Shown here: in pieces, positions 1,209 through 54,465 of the stretch
How the letters are laid out: each line of letters starts with the position of its first letter
Numbering within the stretch: the stretch's first letter is position 1
DNA from: a virus
Taxonomy: Duplodnaviria > Heunggongvirae > Uroviricota > Caudoviricetes
DNA: 64,000 nucleotides
Virus record (IMG/VR): IMGVR_UViG_3300010998_000001
Span: 91,477 to 155,476 of that record
Reading direction: 5' to 3' (one strand)
Program-made: the position numbers and the translations under genes
Notes under the pieces: model-generated
Told to the model about the DNA's origin: nothing
What the model saw: only the letters and a program-made list of their open reading frames with translations
Databases searched by the model: none

Positions 1209-1237
1209 CCACTTCTAACAGTTCATTTCCTGTTAGT

Positions 1238-6712: not shown

Positions 6713-6730
6713 ACCTTTTCCTCCATATGA

Positions 6731-7342: not shown

Positions 7343-7350
7343 ATATCCTC

Positions 7351-8793
7351 CTATAGATGAACAACCATCCCGCGAAATGCCATAACTACACGATAAGTCT
7401 TGTTATTATTAGATATGGCTTCTTTCAATCTCTTAGCAAGGGCAGACTTACTCTCGGCTGTTCCGTGAACAAGAACAAGTTTATTAGTATTCAACGAGCT
7501 TCCGAACTTAATCAAATCTGTGCTATTTGCATGACTACTAAATGTAGTCAAAGAAATACAGTCTGCTTTGTTGGGGATTTTCAGTTTGTTAATACTAATA
7601 AATTTGTGATCTCGATAATTCTTTACTCGATATGACAAATATGATGGGTTATCCCCCGTATAACCAGAAAAGACAATAATGCTATTCGGATCGGCAATAT
7701 ACTTCTTGAGATACTTTACAATCCTGCCGTTAGTGCAAAAACCAGATGAGGATATAATAATCTTTGGTGAATTATCCGCCAGCCACAAATCAGATTCATC
7801 TTTTTCTGAAACAAACTTCACATTCTTCCAGTTATATACCTTTTGCCAATCGTCTAAATCGGCATCATCAAGCAATGAATTATATGCCTTACTTACATCA
7901 CAACTTAGTTTTGAATCCACTAATACAGTCTTATTAAAAAATGAATCTGTTCCAAACAAATCATATAATGATGTAAGAACTTCTTGTGTGCGGCTAAAAC
8001 TGAAACATGGAAACACTACCGATCCACCACGATCTATTGCTGTTTCCACCGTTGACTTTAAATGATCTAAGTCAGCTTTCCGCGTTTTGCGAGAATCGCG
8101 TTTTTCATCTCCGTATGTTGACTCCATTAATACACAATCAACAAACTGAGTCGGTATCTGTGTATCAGGTAAAAAGTGATTATCAGTGTGCAATGCACCT
8201 AAATCTGACGTGTAAAGAATTTTTTTAGTTTTCTCTTTTGTGGATAGGATTAGGTAAAGTTGCGCAGCTCCAAGACAATGAGAGTTTGACAACCATTGAA
8301 AACTAACCGTATCGTTCAATTTAATAGTTTGGTTATAATCATCATATTCATATATTAAATCAAATGTATTATATACATCTGTGATTTCATATATTGGTTT
8401 ATAATTCCTGCCAAACTGCTTTGAGAGAATCTTGCTTTCATCATTTAGTATATGACAAGAATTGATTAAAAGTAATTTCATAATCTCTGCGGTCTTATGA
8501 GTTGCAATAATCCGTCCATGGAATCCCTCATGAACCAATCTTGGAAGAAGGCCGCAATGATCTATGTGTGGGTGTGCCACAAATACAAAATCAATTTCCG
8601 ATGGCTTGAACTTGAATTTTTCAGAATTAATCTTATAAGAATCTAAATAACTATTGCTGGAAGATTGATGCAATCCACATTCTAATAAACACTGGCATGG
8701 GCCAAATCGAATGTAATACTGTGAACCAGTGACATCATCAGATGCTTTTCCAGTAAAGAAAATGCCATCCGTTTTTAGTTTCTTTTTACTCAT
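7351..8793 (-). CDS. Metallo-beta-lactamase-fold / beta-CASP-type nuclease (RNase J / CPSF-like)
   Basis: HxHxDH motif FVAHPHIDHCG near the N-terminus; 480 aa. Confidence 0.6.
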   Translation of the reverse strand: MSKKKLKTDGIFFTGKASDDVTGSQYYIRFGPCQCLLECGLHQSSSNSYLDSYKINSEKFKFKPSEIDFVFVAHPHIDHCGLLPRLVHEGFHGRIIATHKTAEIMKLLLINSCHILNDESKILSKQFGRNYKPIYEITDVYNTFDLIYEYDDYNQTIKLNDTVSFQWLSNSHCLGAAQLYLILSTKEKTKKILYTSDLGALHTDNHFLPDTQIPTQFVDCVLMESTYGDEKRDSRKTRKADLDHLKSTVETAIDRGGSVVFPCFSFSRTQEVLTSLYDLFGTDSFFNKTVLVDSKLSCDVSKAYNSLLDDADLDDWQKVYNWKNVKFVSEKDESDLWLADNSPKIIISSSGFCTNGRIVKYLKKYIADPNSIIVFSGYTGDNPSYLSYRVKNYRDHKFISINKLKIPNKADCISLTTFSSHANSTDLIKFGSSLNTNKLVLVHGTAESKSALAKRLKEAISNNNKTYRVVMAFRGMVVHL

Positions 8794-8805
8794 GGCAAAG
8801 CCTCC

Positions 8806-8988
8806 TTACAGAAGTTTCTTCGCCATATCAACATACTTATCTTCGATATACCGTTTTGTTCTAGTCCGATAGTATCCGATTACAAAGCCGCTTTTATTAA
8901 TAAAGCCTTTTCTAGTATTTCGTATAATCCCATTCTTTACTAGAACATTCATTTCATTTTTGGTAATCGTTTTTATGGTAAACACCAT
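8806..8988 (-). CDS. Small hypothetical protein (60 aa)
   Basis: ORF track only. Confidence 0.3.
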   Translation of the reverse strand: MVFTIKTITKNEMNVLVKNGIIRNTRKGFINKSGFVIGYYRTRTKRYIEDKYVDMAKKLL

Positions 8989-9035
8989 CCTTTATTTAAT
9001 AATAAAACCAGTAGCCTTAATAGACTACTGGTGCT

Positions 9036-9112
9036 ATGGCTCTCCGTGTAGGTCACGATCCTACGACATCCAGATTAACAGTCTGGCGCTCTACCAACTG
9101 AGCTAACGGAGA
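9036..9112 (-). tRNA. tRNA-Asn (GTT)
   Basis: Clean cloverleaf on the minus strand. The anticodon loop is CTGTTAA between CCAGA/TCTGG. CCA is encoded. Confidence 0.85.
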
Positions 9113-9118
9113 TTATAT

Positions 9119-9195
9119 TGGTGGAAGTAAGCGGAATCGAACCGCTGCTCTTCTGCTTGCAAGGCAGCTGCTTTCCCAACTAAGTTATACCCCCA
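9119..9195 (-). tRNA. tRNA-Ala (TGC) with the G3:U70 identity pair
   Basis: Minus-sense GGGGGTATAAC...CTTGCAA...GGTTCGATTCC...TACTTCCACCA. G3 pairs with U70. Confidence 0.8.
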
Positions 9196-9289
9196 TATAA
9201 AGCGGCAACTCGGCAGGATTTAACATTCTCCCTACAGTTTTAGATACAAAGACTTCGCCTCGCTTACCAGGCATTAACGCCACCGCTTA

Positions 9290-9366
9290 TGGTAGTCAGA
9301 GAGGGGATCGAACCCACGATCTCACGATTATCAGTCGTGCGCTTTAGCCTACTAAGCTATCCAACT
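9290..9366 (-). tRNA. tRNA-Ile (GAT)
   Basis: Acceptor AGTTGGA/TCTGACT; anticodon stem-loop CACGA-CTGATAA-TCGTG; T-loop TTCGATC; CCA encoded. Confidence 0.75.
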
Positions 9367-9564: not shown

Positions 9565-10449
9565 TTACATACTTATACTTTTTGATCTATAGTTTTGAAC
9601 GTTTTCTCTTATTTTATTTCTTCTATATTTATCATAACAATTATTGCATCTATTCGTTTGATTGTTTTTTGCGTCTACATCAAACGTCTTTCCGCAATCC
9701 ACACAAATAATGGTTTTCGTATCCCATGTTTGATACCCGGCACATTCAGAACAATACTTCTTTGTTTTAGCTTTATTGTTCTTTATCAATCTGCCGCAAC
9801 TTGCGCAACGAACATAACCGCCATGAGCATAATTCAAATACTCATAGCCAAGCTCTCTGAAATCACTGATTGAAATTACATATGGGCTATCGTCATTAAC
9901 AAACGTTACTCTATTACTTAGATTGTCATTCTTCTTAGGGAACTCTAACAAACCAAGTAGACCAAGATCGCCAAGCATTTGATACTGCTTTAGCTTGCTT
10001 GCGGAGATATGGGCCATTTTGAAAATGTCCTTTGCATCCTCATTGACCCATCCATTATTCTTTACATTCCTTTTATTGGCTAGCTTTGCAAGACATAGTA
10101 TTGTAAATGCTAATCTTTTTAATTCTGTTCTCCCATTTGACTCTTCTATACTATTGATCGTATCAATCTCTGCCTGAGTGATTAGAATTTCACTAATATC
10201 ATATAATGGGTATTTCCCGGCGCGGCGGGAGATACGTTCAACAGTTTCTTGCCATTTAAGGATATTAGCATGATAACGCTTATAGTTTTCTTTCAAAAAC
10301 TCTAACAAGGCTTTTTCAATTCTTTTAGTACGCATTCCTTGTTCATAATAGTATTTTGCAAGTATCTGTAAAGTGATATATACGTTCTCACCCACATCAC
10401 CCGTGTTTATACAAGTCTCGGCGTATTCTCGTTCATTAAGTATAATCAT
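9565..10449 (-). CDS. Hypothetical protein with a C-terminal multi-Cys zinc ribbon
   Basis: CASCG...CSECAG...CVDCG...CNNC cluster in the C-terminus. Confidence 0.45.
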   Translation of the reverse strand: MIILNEREYAETCINTGDVGENVYITLQILAKYYYEQGMRTKRIEKALLEFLKENYKRYHANILKWQETVERISRRAGKYPLYDISEILITQAEIDTINSIEESNGRTELKRLAFTILCLAKLANKRNVKNNGWVNEDAKDIFKMAHISASKLKQYQMLGDLGLLGLLEFPKKNDNLSNRVTFVNDDSPYVISISDFRELGYEYLNYAHGGYVRCASCGRLIKNNKAKTKKYCSECAGYQTWDTKTIICVDCGKTFDVDAKNNQTNRCNNCYDKYRRNKIRENVQNYRSKSISM

Positions 10450-13180
10450 CTATCTTATCACCAACATACATTGTCCGCATATCAAAGACATGTCCACAAT
10501 ATTCAAATTCATCTCCACCATTGACAGGGAAGGAAATTGAATAGTCATTTCTCTTTAATAGATTATGTATAATAGTTTCACCAGCAACTTTCCAGGCAAA
10601 TTGTTTTGATTTTTCTGTCTGATAACAAATATCTAAAACAATATCGCAAAGCTCTAATTCGTTGCTACAAATCTTTTCTGCGGCGGACTTAAAACGATTA
10701 ATAAACTCTTCTTCTGAATTCTCATCTTCATCTGAAACGCCAGAATGAGCCACACGCTGAAAATATGCTTCTCTCTCGTGTGTATAATTTATATATAACT
10801 CTTTGATTGCGTTAAAATCTTTTTTACTGTATTCTGTTCCACTTTTTAAAATAGTATAATCAAATTCTTGATCTATGCGCGATCTAATTGCAGAAGAATC
10901 AAATTCATTTTCTATGATATGGCACAAACGGTTGATAACACAATCATTAAAACCTACGCTCATTCCATATTCATAGTGTTGTATGAAATCAACCATCTCT
11001 TTTGTTTTAGGCGTATATTCTAGTAGTTCTTTGAAACTCTGAATATTGTACTTACGAAATTTGCAAATAACTTTATAATCCGTGTTTTGCAAATACTTTC
11101 TCAGTTTTGTTTTTAGTGCCGGATATACATATATCATAAAGTATGGCTTGTGTGCTGCAACGATCTTCTTGTGAAATGCTTCCGCATCATCTCGCGGAAT
11201 GTCGCGCATTGAATACCAGTATGGAGGCATAGGTTTTGCAATAATGCCTTTAGCTCGATCTATTGTGTTCTGCTGAAAATTCTGTCCGCACATGATACGG
11301 TAATTAAGAATTTTGTATTCTTCACTATCAGGTTGAAAACCAGCTCTCCGCTCGATCATTGAAGTAACATGGTTAGTAACAACACCAATATCATCATTGA
11401 ACGCCAGTTTATTAGCTGCGATAATCTCATCCTCAGTAACTATCTTTTTCTCTGCTTTTCGCTGCACACATACAATTGTAGGCTTTTGTTGTAGGCTCTG
11501 AAGGATAATTGGATTATCCGTACACATATTGGTATCGCCATCAAAATCCGATCCATTCATTGCCTCACAGGTGCTATCAAAGGCATTGTGTATAAGCGCC
11601 GTATCTATATATTGAAACCAATGTAACGCCTCTGCCGAACGATTCAGACGAACCTTTCGGATGTTATTGCTGACTGTCATAGGGGCACGAAAACAAGCAA
11701 TCTCATCTGATCCTCTGTCAATCCAATACTTGTGATAACACTCACCAGCTCGCAATAGACCAGTTACAGGCAACCCAAACATACTTTGACACAGCGCATA
11801 CAAATCGCCGCTTATCATGGCATAATTGCCATTAACACGGATAGAACCCTTCTTAGCACAATCAATGCGTTTTTTTATCATAGTCTGAATGTTGCGCCGT
11901 ACATATGGGTCATTGATTGCCGCTGGCTCGATCATCAGCGCCTTTATATAATCGTCCTCGATCTTTAAAACATTCGACTCATTGAGGCTAAAACCAGCCA
12001 GGAACACTATAGCCTTGCGATAATCCATTCCGAGAACACCATTGATCTCATCAATCGTAGGTTGGCACAGCTCACGCAGCGCATCATCGTCCATATCAAT
12101 GTCCTGAAGGAACTGATAGTTAGTATCTCTTACATTCTCTAATTCATCAGGAGTCAGTTTTGCGGCAGAGAACTCATACCCGTTTTTAATACAGTTGCCA
12201 TAGTAATCTTCCCAACTATCGTAGCAATTCCACAACTTCAACATAGATTCTGTTAAGATGACTTCTGCATCTCTAACATCTCTATCGTCGCCCCATACAT
12301 CCTTTATCACATAAGACCCAGCGACTTTCTCTGCAAACTCCACAAAATCAAATGTATATACCATACCCTTAGTCCAGGCCCATCGTGAATTAAAACCAGA
12401 TACGGTTTTCTCTGGATCGCCGCCGAAGCTTGCATTGACTCTCTTAGAATACGACGGAAGCATCAAACCGTAGCCATCAGAATTGTTATGCTCGATCTCG
12501 TAATCCTTGACATATGACAAATCTGGTTCATCACCCTCTGAGTCCTGGATCAAAATGACATCTTCTTTAAAATGAGTAATACAGTCATTCACAACAATGA
12601 TTCCATGTGGCTGTGGTAGGGGAGTGGAGCCAGAACAAATGAGGGCTTGATATGCCTCAAGCTTGGCAGGAACCAGAGGGACATCATGATTGCGCCCGTT
12701 ATCTAACTTGGCTTTTAATGCCGGGTACAGCTTATCATTCACATAAACAATCGTGCTGTTCTTAATACCACCATTTGTCCCAAGAAATCTTCTGTACTTG
12801 ATGCCATTAACATAGAAACCTTTATTAGCGCGGTCATAATCAGAATTGCTCGCCATAACTACACAAATGTAATCTTGTTGAAACTGCAACTCATAAAGAA
12901 CACGATAGTATTCATTAATCATCTTCTTAGTTTCAACTGTCCTTGGCTTTTTCTTTTCTATCTTAATCTTTTTCTGTACTGCGCGGATTTCGTTATCAAT
13001 GTTTCGCACATTATTCAGTTTATCAATAAACCTTAGAACTTGACTCGTACCGATAGAAACCACTATCTCAGGGTAATCACGCAAGGCCTCGTCTAAAGGC
13101 AATTTTAAATTCCAATTAGCTTTCTTTAATTGTTTGCTGCTGATCTTGTATATCAAACGTAAGCAGCTCTGTTGTTTCAT
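10436..13180 (-). CDS. Large protein (914 aa) with a DFDGD metal-binding motif; candidate single-subunit two-barrel RNA polymerase (YonO/QDE-1-like). Function unproven.
   Basis: NGSDFDGDTNMCTDNP resembles the NADFDGD catalytic loop of multisubunit-type RNAPs and the DxDGD loop of cellular RdRPs. No Walker motifs and no PolA/PolB motifs are present. Confidence 0.35.
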   Translation of the reverse strand: MKQQSCLRLIYKISSKQLKKANWNLKLPLDEALRDYPEIVVSIGTSQVLRFIDKLNNVRNIDNEIRAVQKKIKIEKKKPRTVETKKMINEYYRVLYELQFQQDYICVVMASNSDYDRANKGFYVNGIKYRRFLGTNGGIKNSTIVYVNDKLYPALKAKLDNGRNHDVPLVPAKLEAYQALICSGSTPLPQPHGIIVVNDCITHFKEDVILIQDSEGDEPDLSYVKDYEIEHNNSDGYGLMLPSYSKRVNASFGGDPEKTVSGFNSRWAWTKGMVYTFDFVEFAEKVAGSYVIKDVWGDDRDVRDAEVILTESMLKLWNCYDSWEDYYGNCIKNGYEFSAAKLTPDELENVRDTNYQFLQDIDMDDDALRELCQPTIDEINGVLGMDYRKAIVFLAGFSLNESNVLKIEDDYIKALMIEPAAINDPYVRRNIQTMIKKRIDCAKKGSIRVNGNYAMISGDLYALCQSMFGLPVTGLLRAGECYHKYWIDRGSDEIACFRAPMTVSNNIRKVRLNRSAEALHWFQYIDTALIHNAFDSTCEAMNGSDFDGDTNMCTDNPIILQSLQQKPTIVCVQRKAEKKIVTEDEIIAANKLAFNDDIGVVTNHVTSMIERRAGFQPDSEEYKILNYRIMCGQNFQQNTIDRAKGIIAKPMPPYWYSMRDIPRDDAEAFHKKIVAAHKPYFMIYVYPALKTKLRKYLQNTDYKVICKFRKYNIQSFKELLEYTPKTKEMVDFIQHYEYGMSVGFNDCVINRLCHIIENEFDSSAIRSRIDQEFDYTILKSGTEYSKKDFNAIKELYINYTHEREAYFQRVAHSGVSDEDENSEEEFINRFKSAAEKICSNELELCDIVLDICYQTEKSKQFAWKVAGETIIHNLLKRNDYSISFPVNGGDEFEYCGHVFDMRTMYVGDKIDDYT

Positions 13181-34343: not shown

Positions 34344-34508
34344 TGAACCTATAAAGAGTACGCGAGGGACAAGCCCAATGACCGTACAGCAACCTACCAT
34401 CTGGCAAGGTGCTAAAGCTTGACCGATAGGACTGAATGTGGTCTTATCGGAAACGATAGGGCTTTTTTGTTACTCTTTTTTGGTAATAAATTTTTAGGAG
34501 TTGACAGT

Positions 34509-42870: not shown

Positions 42871-43830
42871 ATGGCACAGACGGCAAGAAAGATGGACGAG
42901 AGCGGAATCATTAACTTCTTTGATTTCTGTGAGCCGCGCCAGGAAGCAGAACAGGACAAAGCTCCGAAACTCAAGAAGGATGGCACTCCTAAAACCATCG
43001 TTTGCAACAAGAAGAGGGGCCGTAAGTCTGAGGTTTACACTCTTGAAATTGCGGACATGAAGAAAATCATTCGTTATTTTGAGGACACCGGGCGCTGGAT
43101 TCATTACCTTCTTTTCGTGATGAGCTGCAACATGGCTCGCCGCGTTGGTGATACTCTCAATCTCCGCTGGTGCAACTTCTATAATGAAGATGGTTCTTTC
43201 CGCAGAGATATTTTTGAGATCGTCGAGGATAAGACCGATAAGCTGGCGAATCCTCATATCAATTCCGCAGTAAGAGCCGCTATTCAGAAGTACATTGAAA
43301 TGACTGGCTGCGATCCTGCCGCGAATGAGTATCAAAACTATGTGTTCCTTCAGTTATCCGGCACACACAAGGGGGCGGTTCTTAGCTACAGCGCGTATAT
43401 GAAGGCTCTGAAAAAGGCGGGAGAGGAAGTCGGTATTGAGTACAATATCGGTACGCACAGCCCTCGCAAAACCTTTGGTATGATGTCCCGTATGCTTCAT
43501 CCCAATGACTATGACAGCATGGAGCTGTTGCAGACTGTTTTCAATCACTCCGATACCAAGACCACGAAACATTACATTGGCTTGACGAAGAAGAAGATTG
43601 ACCAGTATTATGATGATATGGGCGCGTTCTTTGATGCATATGTTACTGGCGACCAGGAATATATCGCGGTCAGCGATAAGCCGATTATCAGCATTGACAT
43701 AAATGATATGCGTGATCTTCTGATGGCTGCTATCAAGGCTGGCTTTGAATCCGGCAAAAACGGCGATCCAGCTTCCATGATGGACAAGTTTAATGAAATG
43801 ATGGAAATGCTGGATACCATGAGAAAGTGA
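42871..43830 (+). CDS. int: Tyrosine recombinase / phage integrase
   Basis: ARRVGDTLNLRW (Arg I), GTHSPRKTFG (His-x-x-Arg) and HSDTKTTKHYIGL (catalytic Tyr). Confidence 0.75.
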   Translation: MAQTARKMDESGIINFFDFCEPRQEAEQDKAPKLKKDGTPKTIVCNKKRGRKSEVYTLEIADMKKIIRYFEDTGRWIHYLLFVMSCNMARRVGDTLNLRWCNFYNEDGSFRRDIFEIVEDKTDKLANPHINSAVRAAIQKYIEMTGCDPAANEYQNYVFLQLSGTHKGAVLSYSAYMKALKKAGEEVGIEYNIGTHSPRKTFGMMSRMLHPNDYDSMELLQTVFNHSDTKTTKHYIGLTKKKIDQYYDDMGAFFDAYVTGDQEYIAVSDKPIISIDINDMRDLLMAAIKAGFESGKNGDPASMMDKFNEMMEMLDTMRK

Positions 43831-43839
43831 GGAAACACA

Positions 43840-44115
43840 ATGAATCCGAAGCGTTACGCGGAGCTGCTTGAGTTCATCCAAAAGAATAATGGATGGGGGC
43901 CGAGCATGGCAAAGAGTCTTTACCAGAAAAAGCGACGGTGTTTCAAATATGTAACCGCTGATTTTGATACAAGAACTGGCCGAGTATGGAGGATTGTCCT
44001 CAGAAGTGGATTGCCGGAGCGTGAAAAAGAATTTCTTGTTAATACGCAGGATGATGTGTATGCTCTATATGAGTATCTGAATACGCCCTATGAGGCTTCT
44101 GACGAGGCGACATGA
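43840..44115 (+). CDS. Hypothetical protein (91 aa)
   Basis: RBS gaggaaac. Confidence 0.4.
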   Translation: MNPKRYAELLEFIQKNNGWGPSMAKSLYQKKRRCFKYVTADFDTRTGRVWRIVLRSGLPEREKEFLVNTQDDVYALYEYLNTPYEASDEAT

Positions 44116-44309
44116 AAGAATATAAGGGAATACCAAAGAACGATATAGGCTGGGTGGAAATCCGCACAGACAGTGGCGATCTGTATTACATCACATCTAA
44201 GAAAGATCGGGAGGTATATTATCTTTATAAGATCGAAGATGATACGGCAAAGCTCATGGGTCAGTCTCAAAATCCATTGAAGCTAGAGGAAAAGTTTATA
44301 AGAAGATAA
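44112..44309 (+). CDS. Hypothetical protein (65 aa)
   Basis: ORF track. Confidence 0.35.
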   Translation: MKEYKGIPKNDIGWVEIRTDSGDLYYITSKKDREVYYLYKIEDDTAKLMGQSQNPLKLEEKFIRR

Positions 44310-44320
44310 CAAACTAAAAC

Positions 44321-44370
44321 TTGACAAAAACATAACTTTGTGATATTCTACATATAGTAACTGAGTTACT
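44321..44370 (+). promoter_or_regulatory. Sigma70-like promoter with the near-perfect palindrome AGTAACTGAGTTACT, driving the MazF-like gene
   Basis: ttgaca 44321-26; palindrome 44356-70. Confidence 0.5.
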
Positions 44371-44470
44371 AAATATAACTGAAAGGAAGGCGATGTGTAG
44401 GCGTAATGCTGGCATATCCTCCACAGAGGCGTAGGCTTTGCCTACATAGCGCCGATGTGGGTATTCCAGA

Positions 44471-44854
44471 ATGTACGAACAGAGTTATGTTAAGCGTCCC
44501 AAGTGCGGCGAGATTTGGATGTGTAACCTTACATCCAAAGAGGGAAGTATTCAGAGCGGGTATCGCCCAGTTTTCATTCTCTCCAACAATAAGAATAACA
44601 CATATAGTCCTACGCTGAATGTGATTCCTCTGACTACGAAGATGAACAAGAGAAGTCTGCCTGTTCATGTGGAGCTTTGGGAATACCGGGCGTATGGATT
44701 GAAAGCACCTAGCACTATGCTTATCGAGCAGATTACGACGGTTCCCGCAGAGAACATGCAGCACTATGTCGGCAAGATTGCGGATCAGAATACACTTGCC
44801 AACATTCGCACGGCCATGAGTGTACAGTTCCCTATCATTTCTCTTGCGGTATAG
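44471..44854 (+). CDS. MazF/PemK-family endoribonuclease toxin homolog with no adjacent antitoxin ORF
   Basis: KRPKCGEIWMCNLTSKEGSIQSGYRPVFILS...VIPLTTK... matches the MazF/Kid N-terminal pattern. The start-codon context is weak. Confidence 0.6.
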   Translation: MYEQSYVKRPKCGEIWMCNLTSKEGSIQSGYRPVFILSNNKNNTYSPTLNVIPLTTKMNKRSLPVHVELWEYRAYGLKAPSTMLIEQITTVPAENMQHYVGKIADQNTLANIRTAMSVQFPIISLAV

Positions 44855-44924
44855 AAAATAACATAATAATGCTTGACATTATCCTTTAGGTGTGATACAT
44901 TTACTTTAAATGGAGGATGATGTT

Positions 44925-45947
44925 ATGCAGACAATTCCTACAAAACAGTTGATCGACGAATACATTGATTCGGAGTTCGGCCAGGATGAAATAACTTTGT
45001 ATAAGGTTCGCGGAGGCATAGATCGAAAAGAGATATATGAGTATGAAGCCAAGATTGGGAAACAGCTCATGGATTTCACCGAAGATGAGATCATCGATAT
45101 GGTATGCACTTTGCAAAATGGCAGAGTTACCAGTCGCGGTGAAGGTGTGTCTTTACTGACGTACAAGAACTTTTTGTCTCGGCTGAGAGGAATTTTTAAT
45201 TACTACATCGAGCATTATGAAGTAATCCGAAATCCGATGAATAGTAAATCCATGCGCGGCGCGGCTGCGCTGGACAAGATTTCAGAGCGAGTTATTAAAC
45301 CATATTCATATGAGGATGTTGAACAACTGATCGCTTATGCACACATGGATGATACGCCAGAGATGGGCGATTGGTTGGAATGTGTGATACTTCTCTTTTA
45401 TAGTGGCTGTCCTTCTCCGCAAGAGCTTACGCGCATTAAAGAGGACATGATCGATTTCAATGCTAATGAAATCCATATGGCGAATGGAGTGACTATCCAT
45501 CCCTCTGCAAGATGCTTGTATCTCTTCAAAAAAGTTCATGAGATGGAAATTGTCATGGGCGGCAAGGGGCGCGGAGTAGGTCAATACCTTATGTATCAGT
45601 ATAAGGATTACTATATGCGCTATCTGATAGTTCCAGGAATGGAATATGAATATAACCAAAGGGAAGAGGAAGTTCTATCAGAGCTAGCAAACAAGATCAA
45701 TCAACAGTTCGCAAAAAGACTTTCCTCGAAGTACAATGTCAAAGCAAGCCCGCGCCAGATATACTTGTTAGGTTTTTATGATTATATGGTAAATAATCTT
45801 GGGCTTGATGAAACGAACGACATTATTTTATCTCAAAGAGATAAGTCAAAGTCTGATATTTTTGTTAGTATGGCGGATCAGTATGGAGTGAACCGCTGCA
45901 ACATTACAGAAATGCGGAATAAGATGCGGCCATTTGTAAGACATTAA
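44925..45947 (+). CDS. Hypothetical protein with distant, probably inactive integrase-like features
   Basis: Own sigma70 promoter at 44867-44895. LLFYSGCPSPQELTRIK sits where a recombinase Arg box would be. No clear catalytic Tyr. Confidence 0.3.
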   Translation: MQTIPTKQLIDEYIDSEFGQDEITLYKVRGGIDRKEIYEYEAKIGKQLMDFTEDEIIDMVCTLQNGRVTSRGEGVSLLTYKNFLSRLRGIFNYYIEHYEVIRNPMNSKSMRGAAALDKISERVIKPYSYEDVEQLIAYAHMDDTPEMGDWLECVILLFYSGCPSPQELTRIKEDMIDFNANEIHMANGVTIHPSARCLYLFKKVHEMEIVMGGKGRGVGQYLMYQYKDYYMRYLIVPGMEYEYNQREEEVLSELANKINQQFAKRLSSKYNVKASPRQIYLLGFYDYMVNNLGLDETNDIILSQRDKSKSDIFVSMADQYGVNRCNITEMRNKMRPFVRH

Positions 45948-46100
45948 AGGCATTGCCGCCAATAGGCGGCTTTGCTAAAACTTAAAAGAGAAAAACAAAC
46001 TAAGTATTGACAAACGATGTGCGATATGGTATAATACTTGACAGATGGAGATTGACTTTCTCCAATATGAAAAAACAAACTAAAGGAAGAAGGGGAACAA

Positions 46101-47812: not shown

Positions 47813-47850
47813 CTAAACCCCTTGCGCCCCAAGGGTTTGCGGACTTGAAA
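47813..47850. terminator. GC-rich hairpin (AAACCCCTTG-CGCC-CCAAGGGTTT) with a downstream T-run; candidate intrinsic terminator between operons
   Basis: Direct reading. The T-run is ~10 nt removed from the stem. Confidence 0.4.
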
Positions 47851-47919
47851 ATATTTTTATTGTAAAAATGCTATTTTCAATAAAATGCAAATTTGATTTT
47901 AGCCATTCGGAGGAATATA

Positions 47920-48117
47920 ATGTGTAGCTGTTATTATGATTTTGACACAAGAAAAAGAAACACGAAGGATAGGCTTGAGGATTATCTTGTAGGCCATGGT
48001 TTTATATATGAATTGTTTGACCGCGGCGGCGCAGGAAATCCAAATTGGCACTTTGAAATCCTTCTAAGTGACAATGATGTGCCAGTTGTCAACCACTACT
48101 TAAATCAAATTGCCTAA
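47920..48117 (+). CDS. Small protein (65 aa) immediately upstream of the nucleotidyltransferase
   Basis: RBS cggaggaa. Confidence 0.35.
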   Translation: MCSCYYDFDTRKRNTKDRLEDYLVGHGFIYELFDRGGAGNPNWHFEILLSDNDVPVVNHYLNQIA

Positions 48118-48130
48118 TAGGAGATAATAA

Positions 48131-49156
48131 ATGAAGATCGAAGAAATAAAAGAAGCAATCCAGACAGAAAGCTATAATTTTCTTCGTACCCATCCGGCGC
48201 TAGGGAACAACATTATTCTTCTTGGCCTTGGCGGGAGCCATGCTTATGGTACAGAAAATGCGAATAGTGATTTGGATGTTCGGGGGATCGCCACAAATAC
48301 AAAGAGATTTCTTCTGACTGGCCGCGATTTCGAGCAGTATGTGGAGCGTGAAACAGACACAACGGTTTATTCCTTCGACAAAATGATTAAGTTGCTTTGC
48401 AACTGCAATCCTAATACGATTGAAATTCTTGGTCTAAAGCCGGAGCATTATCTGAGGATGACAAGAGCTGGAAAGATGCTGCTTGATAACAAAGAGATTT
48501 TTCTTTCCAAGATTGCAGTTCATTCCTTTGGCGGTTATGCAAATTCTCAACTTCGCAGACTGGAAAACAAATCGGCGCGGCTCGCAAGCCAGGAACAGCA
48601 GGAAAAGAATATTCTGAAAAGCATTGAGAATGCCAGCGTAGATTATAAGCAGCACTATTTCCATTTCCCTGATGATGCTATCCGTCTTTTCATTGATGAG
48701 ACTGACCGCGAGGGATATAACACAGAGATTTTCATGGATGTGAATTTGTCTCATTATCCTCTGCGTGATTATACTGGCCTGTGGAGCGAGATGCAGAACG
48801 TGGCGAAAGCGTATGCAAGCATTGGAAAGAGAAATGAGAAGGCAATCGCGCACGACAAGCTGGGGAAGCATATGTGCCATTTGGTAAGGCTCTACCTCAT
48901 GTGTTTCGATATTCTTGAAAAGGGAGAGATCAACACCTTCCGCGACAAAGACCACGATCTTCTTATGTCCATCCGTAATGGACGGTATCTTGACGAAAAC
49001 CGTCAGCCTATTCCAGAGTTCTATGAAATGGTCGATGGATTAGAAAAGCGCCTCGATTATGACAAGACGCATACTGAGCTGCCGGACAGACCAGACATGG
49101 AAGCTGTATATGATCTGGCAATGACAATTAATGAAGAAGTGTGTAGGAGCGTGTAA
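48131..49156 (+). CDS. Pol-beta-superfamily nucleotidyltransferase (RlaP-like GS-x-AYG...SD-x-D class)
   Basis: GLGGSHAYGTENANSDLDVRG; 341 aa. Confidence 0.6.
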   Translation: MKIEEIKEAIQTESYNFLRTHPALGNNIILLGLGGSHAYGTENANSDLDVRGIATNTKRFLLTGRDFEQYVERETDTTVYSFDKMIKLLCNCNPNTIEILGLKPEHYLRMTRAGKMLLDNKEIFLSKIAVHSFGGYANSQLRRLENKSARLASQEQQEKNILKSIENASVDYKQHYFHFPDDAIRLFIDETDREGYNTEIFMDVNLSHYPLRDYTGLWSEMQNVAKAYASIGKRNEKAIAHDKLGKHMCHLVRLYLMCFDILEKGEINTFRDKDHDLLMSIRNGRYLDENRQPIPEFYEMVDGLEKRLDYDKTHTELPDRPDMEAVYDLAMTINEEVCRSV

Positions 49157-50428
49157 ATGTACCTTCCATCTGATGTAGAGTATATTCTTGAAGTCTTATA
49201 TCTCAATGGGTATCAAGCGTATTGCGTTGGTGGATGTGTTCGTGACAGTTTGATGGGTATTAAGCCGCACGACTATGACATTTGCACGTCGGCAACACCA
49301 GATCAAATCTTGGGCATATTCAACGAATGTGGCTTGCGCTGTCTTACCGTGGGCCTGAAACATGGCACGGTCACGGTCATTCTTGGCAGCGAGCAATATG
49401 AGATCACGACATTTCGTATTGATGGTGATTATTCAGATGGTAGACACCCGGACGAGGTAATATTTACAGACAAGCTTTATGAGGATTTGGCGCGACGGGA
49501 TTTCACTATGAACGCCATTGCCTATAATTTCAGAGATGGGATCGTAGACCCATTCCACGGTCAGGATGATATTAAGCGGCGCATTATCCGCTGTGTTGGT
49601 GATGCCAATGAACGATTCCAGGAGGACGCTCTGCGTATGCTGCGCTGTCTGCGCTTTGCCTCGCGGTTCAATGATCTATATATAGACGGCGATACCAGAC
49701 AAGCGCTTATAACTAATGCGCATCTTCTCAAGAATGCGTCTGTCGAGCGCATTCAGTCTGAGCTTGTGCAGATTTTGGAGTGCGACAATCATTCTAACCA
49801 AATCCTGTATGAGAATTTGATCTATCTTCTTTCCGTCGTTGTGCCGGAGCTTGAGATGGATGATAAATATGATATAGCTCGCCACCTGATCGGACAACAT
49901 TCAACTGGCCGCAATGTCTATACAATGGCGGCTCTTCTTTTCGATTTCTGTGAAGAGACGCTAGATGATGTTTTGCGCCGCTTGAGATTCCCGAATGATG
50001 ATATTTACCACATCAAGCATATCAGCGCCAATGGCTATGATATTGTTGAAAATCTTGACATTCTTATGTCTGGTAATGTCGATCTCGATATTTTTGCGCG
50101 AGATATTATCAGCCGCATAGGATATGGGGACGCTTTTGAATCTGTGAATTATGCGATCTCCTATCAGAGCGTTGATATGGACAAGGTGAGTTTTCTTTTT
50201 GGTCTGAAGGAGATCGTCGGCGCACACTATGTAGACGAGGGCCGCATTACTATTTCGTCTCTTGAGATTAACGGAAATGATTTGCTGGCTCTTGGGTATC
50301 AGGATCGCAAGATTGGAGAGATGCTAAACATCCTTCTTGATAAAGTCATTCATTATGAGCTTGGGAATAAGCGCGATCAACTCATGTGGTTTGTGAAAAA
50401 TTATAAAGCAAAACAAACTAAGTCTTGA
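49157..50428 (+). CDS. cca: tRNA nucleotidyltransferase (CCA-adding enzyme)
   Basis: GYQAYCVGGCVRDSLMGIKPHDYDICTSATPDQI matches the class-II CCA-enzyme head motif. Confidence 0.8.
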   Translation: MYLPSDVEYILEVLYLNGYQAYCVGGCVRDSLMGIKPHDYDICTSATPDQILGIFNECGLRCLTVGLKHGTVTVILGSEQYEITTFRIDGDYSDGRHPDEVIFTDKLYEDLARRDFTMNAIAYNFRDGIVDPFHGQDDIKRRIIRCVGDANERFQEDALRMLRCLRFASRFNDLYIDGDTRQALITNAHLLKNASVERIQSELVQILECDNHSNQILYENLIYLLSVVVPELEMDDKYDIARHLIGQHSTGRNVYTMAALLFDFCEETLDDVLRRLRFPNDDIYHIKHISANGYDIVENLDILMSGNVDLDIFARDIISRIGYGDAFESVNYAISYQSVDMDKVSFLFGLKEIVGAHYVDEGRITISSLEINGNDLLALGYQDRKIGEMLNILLDKVIHYELGNKRDQLMWFVKNYKAKQTKS

Positions 50429-50453
50429 CAAATCAAGAATAATCTGCTATAAT
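50425..50453 (+). promoter_or_regulatory. Sigma70 promoter with an extended -10 (ctgcTATAAT), upstream of the Thg1-like gene
   Basis: ttgaca-aatcaagaataatctgc-tataat. Confidence 0.5.
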
Positions 50454-50483
50454 ACAGTATAGAAAAACGAAAGGACAGAAACA

Positions 50484-51284
50484 ATGACAAAGGATTCTCT
50501 TGGAGATCGGATGAAAGCCTACGAGAACATCAATCGAAATTATCTCATGCGGCGAGTGCCAGTTGTGATTCGCCTGGATGGGAAAGCGTTCCATACCTTC
50601 ACCCGTGGATTCAATAAGCCGTTTGATGATGTTTTCTCTGCCGCCATGGGCGACACAATGAAATATCTTTGTGAGAATATCCAGGGATGCGTTCTTGGTT
50701 ATACTCAGTCAGACGAGATTTCTTTGTGCCTGGTTGATTACCAGAAACTAGATAGTGATGCCTGGTTTAGCTACAACATTCAGAAGATGGCGAGCGTGGC
50801 CGCGAGTATGGCAACACTCAAATTCAATAATGCGTTTCTTCGCCATGTAGAAGAAACAAAGAGTATTCTATCGTATCCCGATCCAGTTAAAGATATGTTG
50901 GACGATGATCCTACGCCGTTTTCGGCTTATTACACAGCAAAGTTTCGTGGCGCAATGTTCGATGCTCGTTGTTTCAGTCTGAGTAAGGAAGAGGTTTGCA
51001 ATTACTTTCTCTGGCGGCAGAACGATGCTGTAAGAAATTCTATCTCAAGCGCGGCGCAATCCCTATTCTCTCATAACGAGCTGCTGGGAATTGACTCTAA
51101 TGGCCTTCAGGATAAGATGTTCACAGAACGCGGTGTAAACTGGAATGACTATCCTACGAAGTATCGACGCGGTTTCTGCTGTGTCAAAGGCGAAGATGGA
51201 AAATGGTTTCTTGATACAGAGATTCCTATTTTCAAGGGCGAGGATCGCGCCTATATCGACAAATTTATTTATGTTGGCGAATAA
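50484..51284 (+). CDS. Thg1-like protein (tRNA-His guanylyltransferase family, 3'-5' nucleotide addition)
   Basis: KAYENINRNY...VVIRLDGKAFHTF...GYTQSDEISLCL parallels Thg1 (EYV...RIDGKHFHRF...YGESDEYSF). Confidence 0.75.
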   Translation: MTKDSLGDRMKAYENINRNYLMRRVPVVIRLDGKAFHTFTRGFNKPFDDVFSAAMGDTMKYLCENIQGCVLGYTQSDEISLCLVDYQKLDSDAWFSYNIQKMASVAASMATLKFNNAFLRHVEETKSILSYPDPVKDMLDDDPTPFSAYYTAKFRGAMFDARCFSLSKEEVCNYFLWRQNDAVRNSISSAAQSLFSHNELLGIDSNGLQDKMFTERGVNWNDYPTKYRRGFCCVKGEDGKWFLDTEIPIFKGEDRAYIDKFIYVGE

Positions 51285-51319: not shown

Positions 51320-52180
51320 ATGAACAAAAATTATTCTAAGATTATTGGCGCGGTTGTTGCTGTCGTAATTGTACTGATTCTGATTATGTCGTGTACGGTT
51401 GTGATTGGAGCCGGACATACTGGCGTTGTATCTACGTTTGGCAAAATCAGTGAAGATGTCCTCCAGGAAGGATTTTCTTTTAAGGCCCCGTGGCAAAAGG
51501 TAACTAAGGTTGATAACCGTATTTCGATGCTGACTGTATCAACAGAGGCATTTAGTTCTGACCTTCAGACGGTTAGTGTTGTTGTTGCTGTGAATTATCG
51601 TATTGATACGAGCAAGAGTTATTACATCATCAAAAATATTGGAAAGGATTACGAGGATGTTCTGGTTAATCCTTCTGTGAACGAGGTTCTGAAACAGATC
51701 ATTGCGCAGTACACGGCAGAGCAGAGCATTACTAATCGCGGCGTAATTTCTCTTGCACTTCTTGATGGGCTGAATGAAAAGCTAAATGCAAGTGGTATCT
51801 ATGTGAGTGATATTAACATTATCGACTTTGATTTTAGCGATACATATATTGATGCCGTGGAAGCGAAACAGGTCGCGGAACAGGCCATGCTCAAGGCTCA
51901 GATCGAACAGGAGCAGATGACTATGGAGCGGGAAGCCCAGGCAGAGCGCGATATTATTGCCGCCGAAGCCGCTCTTGAAGTGAGCAAGATCGAGGCCGAA
52001 GCCGTAGAGTTTGCCGGACAGAAAGAGGCCGCAGCGAATAAGGCTATTAGTGAGAGTATTACGTCGGAGCTTGTAGAGTATTATAAGGTTCAGGCTTGGG
52101 ATGGCGCACTTCCAACTATTACTGGAAGTGAATCTATAATCACTCTTACTGGTGTTACTGATGACTCTGACGCGCAGTAA
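51320..52180 (+). CDS. SPFH/band-7 (prohibitin/HflC-like) membrane protein
   Basis: N-terminal TM helix, SPFH-like core, and a C-terminal EAQ/A-rich coiled-coil. Confidence 0.55.
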   Translation: MNKNYSKIIGAVVAVVIVLILIMSCTVVIGAGHTGVVSTFGKISEDVLQEGFSFKAPWQKVTKVDNRISMLTVSTEAFSSDLQTVSVVVAVNYRIDTSKSYYIIKNIGKDYEDVLVNPSVNEVLKQIIAQYTAEQSITNRGVISLALLDGLNEKLNASGIYVSDINIIDFDFSDTYIDAVEAKQVAEQAMLKAQIEQEQMTMEREAQAERDIIAAEAALEVSKIEAEAVEFAGQKEAAANKAISESITSELVEYYKVQAWDGALPTITGSESIITLTGVTDDSDAQ

Positions 52181-52207
52181 TTGAATCAAAAAAAGGAGAA
52201 TAATGAG

Positions 52208-52840
52208 ATGAAGATTAAGATTGAGAATAATGTTCCAAATGTAAGGGTTACTGTCAACAAGGCAGATGATGGCACGTTTTCTATTCTTCTTGTAGAGGAT
52301 GATAAAAAGAAGCTGGGAGATATCTCTTGCGGAGCAGTTGTTAAGATTGGCGACATTGAGTATATCGTTCTTGACCATCTTGATAATGGTGGTACAGCGG
52401 TTATCACTAAAGAGTTTGCGTATAACGATATGAAGTTTGGCGATAGTGCAGATTGGCGCAGTTCCATCATCCGTGCGAAACTGAATAACGAATTTTATAA
52501 TGCGCTTGCAGAGATTGTTGGTGTAAATAATATTATTCCGATGACAAGAGATTTGACCAGCCTTGATGGTCTTAGAGATTATGGTGAATGCGAGGATATG
52601 GTTTCTCTTCTTACCATGGATGAGTATAGAAAGTACCACGAAATCCTTGGCCTCATGTCCAATTATCTTGATTGGTGGTGGACTATTACCCCGTTCTCTA
52701 CTCCTAGCAATAACTATTCTCGTGGCGTGTGCTACGTCATTTCCGATGGCACTCTGAATTGGTGCGATTGTGGCTATGGTAGCGCGGTTCGCCCGTTTTG
52801 TATTCTTGATTCTTCCGTCTTGGTGTCTTGCGAGGAATGA
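52208..52840 (+). CDS. DGR target protein (210 aa) with a C-terminal variable region, probably a C-type-lectin-fold ligand-binding module
   Basis: The 3' end holds the VR (52717-52797), which matches the TR except at TR adenines. RBS aaaaggag. Confidence 0.8.
   Translation: MKIKIENNVPNVRVTVNKADDGTFSILLVEDDKKKLGDISCGAVVKIGDIEYIVLDHLDNGGTAVITKEFAYNDMKFGDSADWRSSIIRAKLNNEFYNALAEIVGVNNIIPMTRDLTSLDGLRDYGECEDMVSLLTMDEYRKYHEILGLMSNYLDWWWTITPFSTPSNNYSRGVCYVISDGTLNWCDCGYGSAVRPFCILDSSVLVSCEE
52717..52797 (+). repeat. DGR variable repeat (VR) plus the GC-rich initiation-of-mutagenic-homing element GCGGTTCGCCCG
   Basis: 81-bp match to the TR with 11 substitutions, all at TR adenines. Confidence 0.85.
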
Positions 52841-53208
52841 ATGAGAAAAACACCAAGTTTGAGATTGGTGATAAAGCAGAAACATTATATTTTGATGTAT
52901 TTGACAGAACAACAAATAGAAAGAATTATCCGGTGAAATTTCGCCGTATGGCAGATAAATTACAAGAGTTTTCTCTTGATATATATAGTTATTTGTTGGA
53001 TGCTAATTCCTTTTCGGGCGTAAGCGAGGAAAATAGACGAAGGCGATATACTTTAAAAACAAGGGCAATTACTTGCTGTAACAAGTTCCTAAGTCTAACT
53101 AAATATAGTTTACACGCCCATCTTATTAGCGCGGCGACAAGTGAAACATGGACGAATTTAGCACATGATATTAAATTTATGACTCTCGCTTGGAGAAAGA
53201 ACGATTGA
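52837..53208 (+). CDS. avd: Accessory variability determinant (Avd-like small basic helical protein)
   Basis: Sits between the target gene and the TR. ~123 aa and basic, which is the canonical DGR arrangement. Confidence 0.6.
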   Translation: MNEKNTKFEIGDKAETLYFDVFDRTTNRKNYPVKFRRMADKLQEFSLDIYSYLLDANSFSGVSEENRRRRYTLKTRAITCCNKFLSLTKYSLHAHLISAATSETWTNLAHDIKFMTLAWRKND

Positions 53209-53232
53209 TACATTCTTTAGGCTATACGCTGT

Positions 53233-53313
53233 ATCTCGTAACGTGTGCTACGTCAATTCCAATGGCACTCTGAATTGGAACGATTGTGACTATAGTAACG
53301 CGGTTCGCCCGTT
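53233..53313 (+). repeat. DGR template repeat (TR), with AAC codons at the positions that vary in the VR
   Basis: In the target frame the TR encodes SRNVCYVNSNGTLNWNDCDYSNAVRPF. The Asn-AAC codons correspond to the variable VR codons. Confidence 0.85.
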
Positions 53314-53418
53314 CTGGTGGATTAGTGAGGTCTATAAACTGTTTCGGCAGCTACAAGGAGTACACCACATCATCAAAAGAGCGTATAACCTTTCTCGCCT
53401 CGTGCGGGATAAATACAA

Positions 53419-54465
53419 ATGAATATGGGAGATTTTCAAAAACTAATTGATTTTGAAAACCTTTATAACTCTTATAAAGTATCTCTCAAAGGCAAGGGAC
53501 AGAAATCAGGTGCGATCAAATTTAAAGTTATGGCGCTTGAAAATCTGTGTGTTATGAAACGCCAGTTGGTAGAACATACATACAAGATTTCTCCGTATTC
53601 TGAGTTTATAGTGACCGAGCCAAAACGAAGGGTGGTCAAATCAGGTTCTTTCCGAGATAAGGTTCTTCAACATTGCCTATGCGATTATGTCTTATTACCG
53701 AAGATGAAAGATATTTTCATCCAAGATAATTATGCGGGTCAAATAGGCAAGGGAACTTTATACGGGTTGGATCGTTTGTCAGAAAATCTAACTCATTTTT
53801 ATGGCGAATATGGTTGTGAAGGATATATATTGAAGTGCGATATTGCCAAGTTCTTCTATAATATCAATCATGACTTGATGAAAAAATGTATCAAGAAATA
53901 CTTTGAAGATAAAGACATTCGTTGGGTATGTAATCTATTCATAGATAGCGTTGATGGAGATGGCTTACCGTTAGGTAATCAATGCAGTCAAGTTTTTGCG
54001 CTGATGTATCTTAATGGTTTAGATCATTTCATCGTAGAAAAGTTAGGGTGTAAGTATTATGGTAGATATATGGATGATTTTTATTTATTATCGAATGATA
54101 AAGAATATCTCAAAGATTGTCTGAAACAAATCGAGTCTTTTCTGGCTAAATTAAAGTTGACATTAAATAACAAAACAGAGATTGTGCCGATGCGCAAGGG
54201 TATAAGGTTTTTGGGTTTTCACACATATATTACTGAGCAAGGTAAAATCATTCGTAAACTGACGGGTGACAATAAAAGACAGATAAAGAAGAAGCTTCGC
54301 AAGAAAGCGGCCCTTGTCAATAAGGGAAAAATGACAAGAAAGCAATTTAATGAATCGTATTATTCGTGGCGTAATCATGCCTCGCATGGGAATTGTTATA
54401 AGCTGATATGCGAAATGGATAAATATGTAGAATCATTATTTAGAACGGAGAGTAAGATAATATGA
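53419..54465 (+). CDS. DGR reverse transcriptase
   Basis: RT motifs: FRDKVLQ, GLPLGNQCSQ (the DGR-type [LIV]GxxxSQ instead of QGxxxSP), and YGRYMDDFYLL (YMDD). Confidence 0.85.
   Translation: MNMGDFQKLIDFENLYNSYKVSLKGKGQKSGAIKFKVMALENLCVMKRQLVEHTYKISPYSEFIVTEPKRRVVKSGSFRDKVLQHCLCDYVLLPKMKDIFIQDNYAGQIGKGTLYGLDRLSENLTHFYGEYGCEGYILKCDIAKFFYNINHDLMKKCIKKYFEDKDIRWVCNLFIDSVDGDGLPLGNQCSQVFALMYLNGLDHFIVEKLGCKYYGRYMDDFYLLSNDKEYLKDCLKQIESFLAKLKLTLNNKTEIVPMRKGIRFLGFHTYITEQGKIIRKLTGDNKRQIKKKLRKKAALVNKGKMTRKQFNESYYSWRNHASHGNCYKLICEMDKYVESLFRTESKII

Follow-up and report, generated by a model that had tools for sequence, protein, structure and literature searches.

Within a 64-kb stretch of DNA (the window) from a ~155-kb SPbeta-like temperate phage of gut Clostridia, three genes for enzymes acting on RNA ends lie contiguously on the + strand. 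These encode an RlaP-family Pol-beta nucleotidyltransferase (48131..49156; 341 aa; PF10127, PHROG 388), a class-II CCA-adding enzyme of the Bacillus type, without an HD domain (49157..50428; 423 aa), and a bacterial-type Thg1-like protein (TLP; 50484..51284; 266 aa; PF04446). The original prediction had placed three adjacent genes at these positions and named the same families, and the family assignments proved correct by matches to profiles and to relatives of solved structure. The start that it gave for the locus, 47920, coincides with the start codon (ATG) of an additional small ORF that it did not mention (orf65, 47920..48117, + strand; 65 aa; ribosome-binding site GGAGGA); the three enzyme genes themselves stood. 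Orf65 had no family match and was not found beside RlaP in relatives of the phage; it therefore probably lies outside the functional set and was discarded as a fourth component. A near-identity DNA search of the locus against 50,697 phage records gave zero matches. Prophage relatives of the clade were found in cultured Lachnospiraceae, among them [Clostridium] asparagiforme DSM 15981 and Mediterraneibacter hominis. Since RlaP, the CCA-adding enzyme, TLP, the SPFH protein encoded nearby and orf65 were all without a match to the PADLOC defence-system models, the locus was ruled out as a known anti-phage defence system.

PF10127 was the sole profile match for RlaP (E 3.6e-18; 66.6 bits against a cutoff of 23) and spans residues 19-148 only; PHROG 388 covers residues 11-339 (8e-51). 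No other nucleotidyltransferase family was matched at E≤0.01, so that the grouping with antibiotic- or protein-nucleotidylating families, of which the original prediction had been wary, was not seen. The GS...DxD signature that it reported is present as G35-S36 and D47-L-D49, and G34-G35-S36, D47, D49 and D76 (hG[GS] and the three aspartates) are kept in at least 97% of 76 homologues ranging down to 23% identity. An AF2 model (pLDDT 80.8) consists of a nucleotidyltransferase domain and a helical domain. The closest homologue from a cultured phage, at 42% identity, is that of C. difficile phage AR1086-1, in which a gene for a KptA RNA 2′-phosphotransferase lies ~5 kb from RlaP. RlaP enzymes of Pseudomonas add one or two NMPs onto RNA 3′-OH ends and prefer damaged tRNA (PMC12776372), and the window RlaP, although its sequence is far from both characterised Pseudomonas enzymes, is likewise predicted to extend RNA 3′-OH ends by one or two nucleotides in a template-free reaction. 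It shares this predicted activity, the PF10127 domain and three conserved aspartates with PfRlaP and PaRlaP of the RtcB-RlaP-RtcA operons (PMC12776372), and differs from them in its distant sequence, its phage context, the absence of RtcR-type regulation, and its partner, which is a CCA-adding enzyme here and a 3′-phosphate ligase there. In the crystal structure of PfRlaP, an N-terminal nucleotidyltransferase domain and a helical domain at the C terminus enclose a cleft.

The ATG of the CCA-adding enzyme abuts the RlaP stop codon and is preceded by AGGAG 7 nt upstream. The protein matched PF01743 (7e-39), PF12627 and PF13735; PRK13299, the NCBIfam CCA model, gave 283.2 bits, slightly below its cutoff of 290, whereas PcnB models fell far short (166.7 bits against 305.65). 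Among solved relatives CCA enzymes were the best matches (1e-53), compared with 1e-28 for poly(A) polymerase, and alignment with the Bacillus stearothermophilus CCA enzyme (1miv; 1e-53) showed motifs A-D to be intact (GGCVRD, DYD, RRDFTMNA and EDALRMLR). The class-II CCA head domain is shared with the multifunctional CCA addition/repair protein of E. coli; unlike that HD-domain enzyme, however, the window enzyme has no match to the HD phosphohydrolase profile PF01966 and its HD motif positions are replaced, as in the HD-less Bacillus type. An HD motif is present in 57 of 68 RlaP-linked phage CCA relatives, and PF01966 was confirmed in the three relatives tested (L080, L125 and L164).

TLP matched the Thg1 profile PF04446 (1.4e-29; 103.1 bits against a cutoff of 29.2) and PHROG 4717 (1.6e-86), and was much closer to the Bacillus thuringiensis TLP (BtTLP, 4kgk; 1.4e-65) than to yeast, Candida and human Thg1 (1e-6 to 7e-9). 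Its three carboxylates D32, D77 and E78 correspond to BtTLP D30, D75 and E76, and E14, R30, H37, K45, S76, R162 and R178 correspond to E12, R28, H35, K43, S74, R131 and R147, so that all catalytic and nucleotide-binding residues are common to both proteins (PMC3701042, PMC3061083). Most of this set is invariant among 73 phage TLPs. Hence every catalytic residue mapped in BtTLP is retained in the Thg1-like gene, and the loss of catalytic residues that was to be looked for by alignment was found neither here nor in the RlaP triad. The Thg1 C-terminal domain profile PF14413 scored 17.3 bits, under its cutoff of 26.3; residues 157-264 align with BtTLP 126-239 at 96.5 bits. The segment between the two conserved blocks is 38 aa long (residues 119-156), against ~9 aa in BtTLP, and is hypervariable among phage TLPs (6-46 aa). 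TLP further differs from BtTLP in carrying S189 where the latter has M158, and in being phage-encoded with its own promoter. BtTLP prefers the repair of 5′-truncated tRNAs of any identity (PMC3061083), and TLP is predicted to be a 3′-5′ template-dependent polymerase that refills 5′-truncated tRNAs.

Exact TTGACA-N16-18-TATAAT sites number 13 in the window, against 0.02 expected. The nearest strong promoter upstream of RlaP and the CCA-adding enzyme is a perfect σ70/σA-type site at 46007..46035 (+ strand; TTGACA-17-TGgTATAAT). Between the upstream small genes and orf65 lies a G+C-rich hairpin (47815..47838) which, having no proper + strand T-run, may be a weak terminator or an attenuator. It is followed by a weaker promoter-like site (47893..47921, + strand; TTGATT-17-TATAAT, 10/12) that overlaps the orf65 start, so that on any transcript begun there translation would start with RlaP. 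The extended -10 promoter ascribed to the Thg1-like gene was located at 50425..50453 (+ strand; TTGACA-17-TGcTATAAT), matches the consensus at 12/12 positions, and overlaps the CCA stop codon with its -35 box. Because this perfect promoter separates the CCA gene from TLP, the three genes do not form a single operon but belong to two transcription units; the second, as read from the arrangement of sites, would carry TLP together with the unrelated SPFH gene and DGR cassette, and further genes until the promoter at 57887. One early-type promoter family precedes both units as well as the tRNA arrays, where its sites are at 57887 and 59028.

The tRNA array served by these two promoters extends over 58263..63848 (+ strand), and all its members but one encode CCA. 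ARAGORN called 16 tRNAs in the window and Rfam one more (59991-60078, Ser-GCT), for a total of 17; CCA is encoded in 16 of the 17, and in 15 of the 16 that are supported by Rfam, the sole exception being the tca tRNA at 58685-58756. The call at 58036-58111, made by ARAGORN only, is doubtful, with the tRNA models of Rfam failing to match it even at E≤1, and editing by TLP of its mismatched 5′ end (A1.G72, with an 8-nt anticodon loop) was set aside for that reason. The claim that several phage tRNAs lack an encoded CCA was thus wrong and, with one such tRNA among 16, the argument that had been built on it fails. This bears on the possibility that the three enzymes give routine maturation support to a burst of phage tRNAs, by CCA addition, end turnover, and 5′ completion or G-1 addition. 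That there are at least 17 phage tRNAs behind the same strong promoter type, that one of them would need its CCA added, and that TLP genes occur within tRNA arrays in several phages (inside or beside arrays at 11 of 59 TLP loci) are all consistent with such a role. Yet CCA is encoded in all but one of the 16 Rfam-supported tRNAs, a host must already possess its own CCA enzyme, and to our knowledge RlaP has no role in maturation. Furthermore, neither the window nor the 8 kb beyond its right end yielded a tRNA-His, on which ground TLP was rejected as a tRNA-His G-1 enzyme, and the one tRNA-His seen adjoining a phage TLP (at locus L036) encodes G-1 opposite C73. Maturation support is for these reasons considered an unlikely explanation of the locus. 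The phage tRNA array is, together with host tRNAs, a likely substrate of the enzymes.

Whether the three genes belong together was judged from their linkage in relatives. A single-protein search of IMG/VR with the window CCA enzyme gave zero matches; the 79 IMG/VR CCA loci used here were found by an alignment-based search. RlaP lies within 6 kb of the CCA gene at 67 of these loci, directly upstream in 41, and near it in 24 of 28 CCA clusters formed at 70% identity. TLP is near the CCA gene at 17 of the 79, in at least five arrangements; the gene order of the window recurs in L164 and L215, and TLP-RlaP-CCA is found in L205. Two control genes were present at 2/79 (SPFH) and 0/79 (RT) of the loci. 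In some phages the SPFH gene is again a neighbour of TLP or RlaP, but with this count it was not supported as a component. Sampling from RlaP placed a CCA gene nearby at 30/79 phage loci and 20/80 bacterial-genome loci, and TLP at 4/79 and 2/80, respectively; sampling from TLP placed RlaP nearby at 4/59. The linkage of TLP to RlaP and CCA is facultative. Since RlaP and the CCA gene, sometimes with TLP, are linked repeatedly in diverged phages, a functional association is supported, even though much of the linkage could be synteny inherited within one phage clade. The three could also have no joint function, as independent accessory genes in a variable early region of that clade, whose cargo in relatives includes a DGR, an SPFH gene and genes for NAD salvage, among others; the split of the trio over two transcription units and the rarity of TLP near the other two, as seen from the RlaP or TLP side, would fit. 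This explanation seems rather improbable, given that the RlaP stop and CCA start touch, that the two genes stay adjacent in CCA clusters with less than 70% identity and whether or not the CCA enzyme has an HD domain, and that RNA or tRNA ends are the substrate of all three. The five or more gene orders in which TLP accompanies the pair also argue against it, as they point to proximity retained despite rearrangement, which is not expected from synteny alone.

The trio is a known type of phage tRNA-repair toolkit. The same three families were described in the repertoire of jumbo phages by Iyer, Anantharaman, Krishnan, Burroughs and Aravind (2021; PMC7824862), with the proposal that they restore RNA-end bases after attack by the host. 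In those phages RlaP accompanies RNA ligases, and Thg1 occurs sporadically in genomes >200 kb, whereas the phage studied here is ~155 kb, temperate and SPbeta-like, with the trio contiguous. The present locus differs from the known type in that RlaP is recurrently paired with a CCA-adding enzyme and that the larger ORFs of the window and its Pfam-annotated flanks (~81 kb) yielded neither an RNA ligase nor a polynucleotide kinase. The kinase/phosphatase and RNA ligase of heal-and-seal systems (T4 Pnkp-Rnl1, Pnkp-Hen1, RtcAB) are likewise not found in the ~81 kb. T4 Pnkp-Rnl1 is also a phage-encoded answer to tRNA damage, but it heals the ends and ligates a break in the anticodon loop, whereas the enzymes here would only add nucleotides to ends. 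With no ligase or kinase found nearby, the kit appears to rebuild ends rather than to seal breaks.

The family name of RlaP comes from its association with RNA ligases (PMC12776372; PMC7824862), and it might be argued that a ligase and an end-healing enzyme lie elsewhere in the genome, that RlaP restores anticodon-loop nucleotides before sealing, and that its CCA neighbourhood is secondary. The ~81 kb searched is part of a 155-kb genome, and the KptA gene of AR1086-1 could be taken in the same sense. In addition to the negative search, however, no ligase or kinase was found adjoining RlaP in AR1086-1 or L079, and the recurrent neighbour in the clade is the CCA gene and not a ligase, making this a poor candidate.

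Taken together, these data favor, with a probability of roughly 0.6, three catalytically intact RNA-end enzymes that are expressed early and rebuild tRNA acceptor ends without a ligase. Host RNA polymerase would express the trio early from the consensus promoters, and the enzymes would ensure that tRNAs from host and phage alike keep acceptor ends that can be charged while the infection runs. The CCA-adding enzyme would rebuild CCA, and also complete the one CCA-less phage tRNA, and the Thg1-like enzyme would refill missing 5′ nucleotides with the 3′ strand as template. We infer a counter-defence role, which earlier work had already suggested for phage members of these families (PMC7824862, PMC2904730).

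Some attacks on the acceptor end go beyond what a CCA enzyme alone can mend: a HEPN toxin takes off the four 3′-terminal nucleotides (N73-CCA), and CdiA-CT EC869 cuts tRNA between positions 71 and 72. A more specific and tentative proposal, which we consider possible at best, is that RlaP and the CCA enzyme together form a ligase-independent route for rebuilding 3′ acceptor ends cut upstream of CCA, and with a palm-domain polymerase a complete acceptor-stem kit. RlaP would restore one or two missing nucleotides, after which the CCA enzyme would complete the end. Nuclease damage usually leaves 3′-phosphate or cyclic phosphate ends, whereas RlaP and the CCA enzyme require a 3′-OH, which counts against acceptor-end repair by the window enzymes, whose CCA enzyme is HD-less; in most relatives, where the CCA enzyme carries a fused HD domain, this domain might first clear the 3′ phosphate. 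The opposite strand would be rebuilt or proofread by the palm-domain polymerase, here TLP and in relatives maybe c20, a protein of ~315 aa with a predicted fold similar to right-hand polymerases.

Prophage relatives in cultured Lachnospiraceae make experiments possible. Should the acceptor-end reading be wrong, the locus would still be a clean case of a temperate gut phage that encodes three intact enzymes acting on RNA ends. A 2025 biochemical study points out that the 3′-OH product of RlaP is ill-suited to ligation by RtcB. The RlaP-CCA pair, present in hundreds of phage and prophage sequences, suggests a repair route independent of ligase, and offers a testable substrate for RlaP, namely tRNA acceptor ends trimmed past CCA.

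Four plus-strand ORFs fill positions 47920-51284. The first (47920-48117, 65 aa) is preceded by the ribosome-binding site GGAGGA and matched no family. It is followed by a 341-aa Pol-beta nucleotidyltransferase, RlaP (48131-49156; PF10127, E = 3.6e-18; PHROG 388, 8e-51), a 423-aa class-II CCA-adding enzyme (49157-50428; PF01743, 7e-39; also PF12627 and PF13735) and a 266-aa Thg1-like protein, TLP (50484-51284; PF04446 Thg1, 1.4e-29; PHROG 4717, 1.6e-86). Profile searches thus upheld the families to which the original prediction, made from the sequence without databases, had assigned these three adjacent genes; the CCA-adding enzyme also scored 283 bits against NCBIfam PRK13299, just short of the cutoff of 290. 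The ATG of the CCA gene, with AGGAG 7 nt upstream, abuts the RlaP stop codon, and a spacer of 55 nt separates the CCA and TLP genes. Three other contigs, a metagenomic one of 155,440 bp and two from JGI, hold the exact gene block, and an independent gene caller made identical calls there, the 65-aa ORF included.

Neither a loss of catalytic residues nor a grouping of the nucleotidyltransferase with antibiotic- or protein-nucleotidylating families was found, and the three identities stand. TLP matched the Bacillus thuringiensis TLP (BtTLP) structure 4kgk at 1.4e-65, as against only 1e-6 to 7e-9 for eukaryotic Thg1. Its three carboxylates are D32, D77 and E78, and E14, R30, H37, K45, S76, R162 and R178 are the equivalents of nucleotide-binding and activation residues (roles per PMC3701042); most of these residues are invariant among 73 phage TLPs, and an extra segment at residues 119-156 sits in a loop that ranges from 6 to 46 aa in the same proteins. 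RlaP residues G34-G35-S36, D47-x-D49 and D76 were invariant across 76 homologues, down to 23% identity. The CCA-adding enzyme, closest to that of B. stearothermophilus (1miv, 1e-53), keeps the motifs GGCVRD, DYD, RRDFTMNA and EDALRMLR. Structure decides nothing for RlaP, since searches with its AF2 model (pLDDT 80.8) returned only generic Pol-beta nucleotidyltransferases at low scores.

The extended -10 promoter proposed for the TLP gene was borne out as TTGACA-17-TGcTATAAT at 50425-50453, its -35 box overlapping the CCA stop codon. Exact TTGACA-N16-18-TATAAT sites number 13 in the window, against 0.02 expected (positions 19261, 21070, 26122, 27565, 30812, 32230, 35298, 39665, 42801, 46007, 50425, 57887 and 59028); 12 lie on the plus strand and 11 have a TGn extended -10. 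The site at 46007 is upstream of the RlaP-CCA unit, and those at 57887 and 59028 precede tRNA arrays. The 13 sites appear to mark early units read by the host polymerase, the tRNA arrays among them. With such sites upstream of each, RlaP, the CCA-adding enzyme and TLP likewise seem to be transcribed early by that polymerase, yet they are split over two units. The single module originally proposed is therefore not one transcription unit: a perfect promoter separates CCA from TLP, and the TLP gene heads a unit that runs on into an SPFH gene and then a diversity-generating retroelement (DGR).

The SPFH/Band-7 gene (51320-52180) lies directly after TLP. A prohibitin-family gene is found two genes after TLP in Fusobacterium phage Fnu1, and several relatives have SPFH genes within a few kb of RlaP. 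The DGR (52181-54465) is complete, with a DUF6273 target gene (52181-52840), a reverse transcriptase (53419-54465), and variable and template repeats (52718-52800 and 53234-53316) that are 88% identical and differ nearly always at template adenines. Just upstream of the repair genes, in 42871-45947, a PemK/MazF-type endoribonuclease toxin gene (44471-44854) lies between a tyrosine integrase gene (42871-43830) and a second, integrase-like one (44910-45947).

Linkage among relatives was counted from each gene in turn, in samples dominated by one phage clade and with relatedness ignored. Among 79 IMG/VR loci that were best matches to the CCA-adding enzyme, RlaP lay within 6 kb in 67 and directly upstream in 41, and TLP occurred in 17; the control genes SPFH and reverse transcriptase were present in 2/79 and 0/79. 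With the CCA-adding enzymes clustered at 70% identity, 24 of the 28 clusters showed the RlaP linkage. Starting from RlaP, CCA was downstream in 30 of 79 IMG/VR loci (TLP in 4) and present in 20 of 80 bacterial genome loci (TLP in 2), and starting from TLP, 59 IMG/VR loci gave RlaP in 4 and CCA in 2. At least five gene arrangements occur among the 17 CCA loci that include TLP; two (L164, L215) share the window's order and one (L205) reads TLP-RlaP-CCA. RlaP-CCA is thus a tight recurrent pair, with TLP as a facultative third member. A further family found in the relatives (c20, ~315 aa) directly follows RlaP, often before CCA, in 12/79 and 13/80 loci. None of its 1096 homologues has a Pfam domain, and its fold is predicted with confidence (pLDDT 91.5); among the 79 CCA loci it never occurs together with TLP. 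TLP was in or beside tRNA arrays in 11 of the 59 TLP loci. In seven loci (L021-L023, L030, L032, L036, L047) it lies inside large arrays and has amber-suppressor-like tRNA(cta) genes as neighbours, which suggests that these unrelated phages are stop-codon-recoded.

In the window, ARAGORN called 16 tRNAs and Rfam added a Ser-GCT at 59991-60078. Contrary to the original statement that several lack CCA, 16 of the 17 calls encode it. The sole exception, a tca tRNA at 58685-58756 (labelled SeC by ARAGORN; 37 bits in Rfam), reads UGA and is a candidate opal suppressor, although UGA recoding was not apparent in the window's long ORFs. Another ARAGORN call (58036-58111), which closely follows a perfect promoter, matched no tRNA in Rfam at E<=1; it has an 8-nt anticodon loop, an A1.G72 mismatch and a CCA end. 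HNH endonuclease genes (59237-59764, 63100-63612) are interspersed in the array, which also holds a 503-aa DUF2828 + DUF7788 protein (60610-62121) for which sequence searches gave no solved relatives. A second small cluster (Asn, Ala, Ile; 9037-9366) lies in a minus-strand neighbourhood (5507-9366) with a beta-CASP/RMMBL ribonuclease (7351-8793), a ClpP protease (6731-7342) and a YonJ-like metallophosphoesterase (5507-6712). Neither the window nor the 8 kb beyond it, where Leu-CAA is the only further tRNA, yielded a tRNA-His, so a role for TLP as a tRNA-His G-1 enzyme is unsupported.

Relatives of RlaP add one or two NMPs to RNA 3'-OH ends and prefer damaged tRNA (PMC12776372), and BtTLP refills 5'-truncated tRNAs of any identity (PMC3061083). 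A HEPN toxin takes off the last four tRNA nucleotides, and CdiA-CT EC869 cleaves tRNA between nucleotides 71 and 72. Since such ends, trimmed past CCA, are beyond repair by the CCA-adding enzyme alone, we infer that RlaP would act first in rebuilding the acceptor end, followed by the CCA-adding enzyme, and that TLP would work on the 5' strand.

The HD phosphohydrolase domain, present in relatives (L080, L125, L164), has been lost from the window's CCA-adding enzyme. An HD motif is present in 57 of 68 RlaP-linked phage CCA-adding enzymes, and Pfam confirmed PF01966 in 3/3 HD-motif relatives tested. In the E. coli CCA enzyme the HD domain clears 3' phosphates, and its counterpart in the phage relatives could do the same; its absence here is a gap in the rebuild model for this phage. 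The window's larger ORFs and the annotated flanks yielded neither an RNA ligase nor a polynucleotide kinase.

Flanking genes, in the window and in L148, carry YonJ, YonG, YonD, YonB, YomX, YomV and YomU domains, and a 914-aa protein (10436-13180, minus strand) matches PF05183 (RdRP family), which YonO-type single-subunit RNA polymerases match as well; judged by these genes, the phage is SPbeta-like. RlaP homologues at 55-67% identity come mostly from genomes of Lachnospiraceae and other Clostridia, one of them within the [Clostridium] asparagiforme DSM 15981 chromosome. An SAM (S-box) riboswitch lies at 34346-34462 (60.4 bits, gathering score 44.4). The large terminase is encoded in two separate parts (654-3682, minus strand): residues 288-452 of one part (2315-3682) match PHROG 26582 positions 34-183 and the other part (654-1208) matches positions 184-353. 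The HNH/DUF7487 gene between them (1238-2104) probably marks a mobile intervening element.

A repair role was suggested for phage Thg1 by Anantharaman et al. (2010), and Iyer et al. (2021; PMC7824862) listed RlaP, the CCA-adding enzyme and Thg1 among phage RNA-end-restoring enzymes. No published description of the RlaP-CCA gene pair was found in a search whose coverage stopped short of the founding RlaP paper. The toolkit itself is therefore known; what differs here is that the same three enzymes are encoded contiguously, with no ligase found, in a temperate gut phage.
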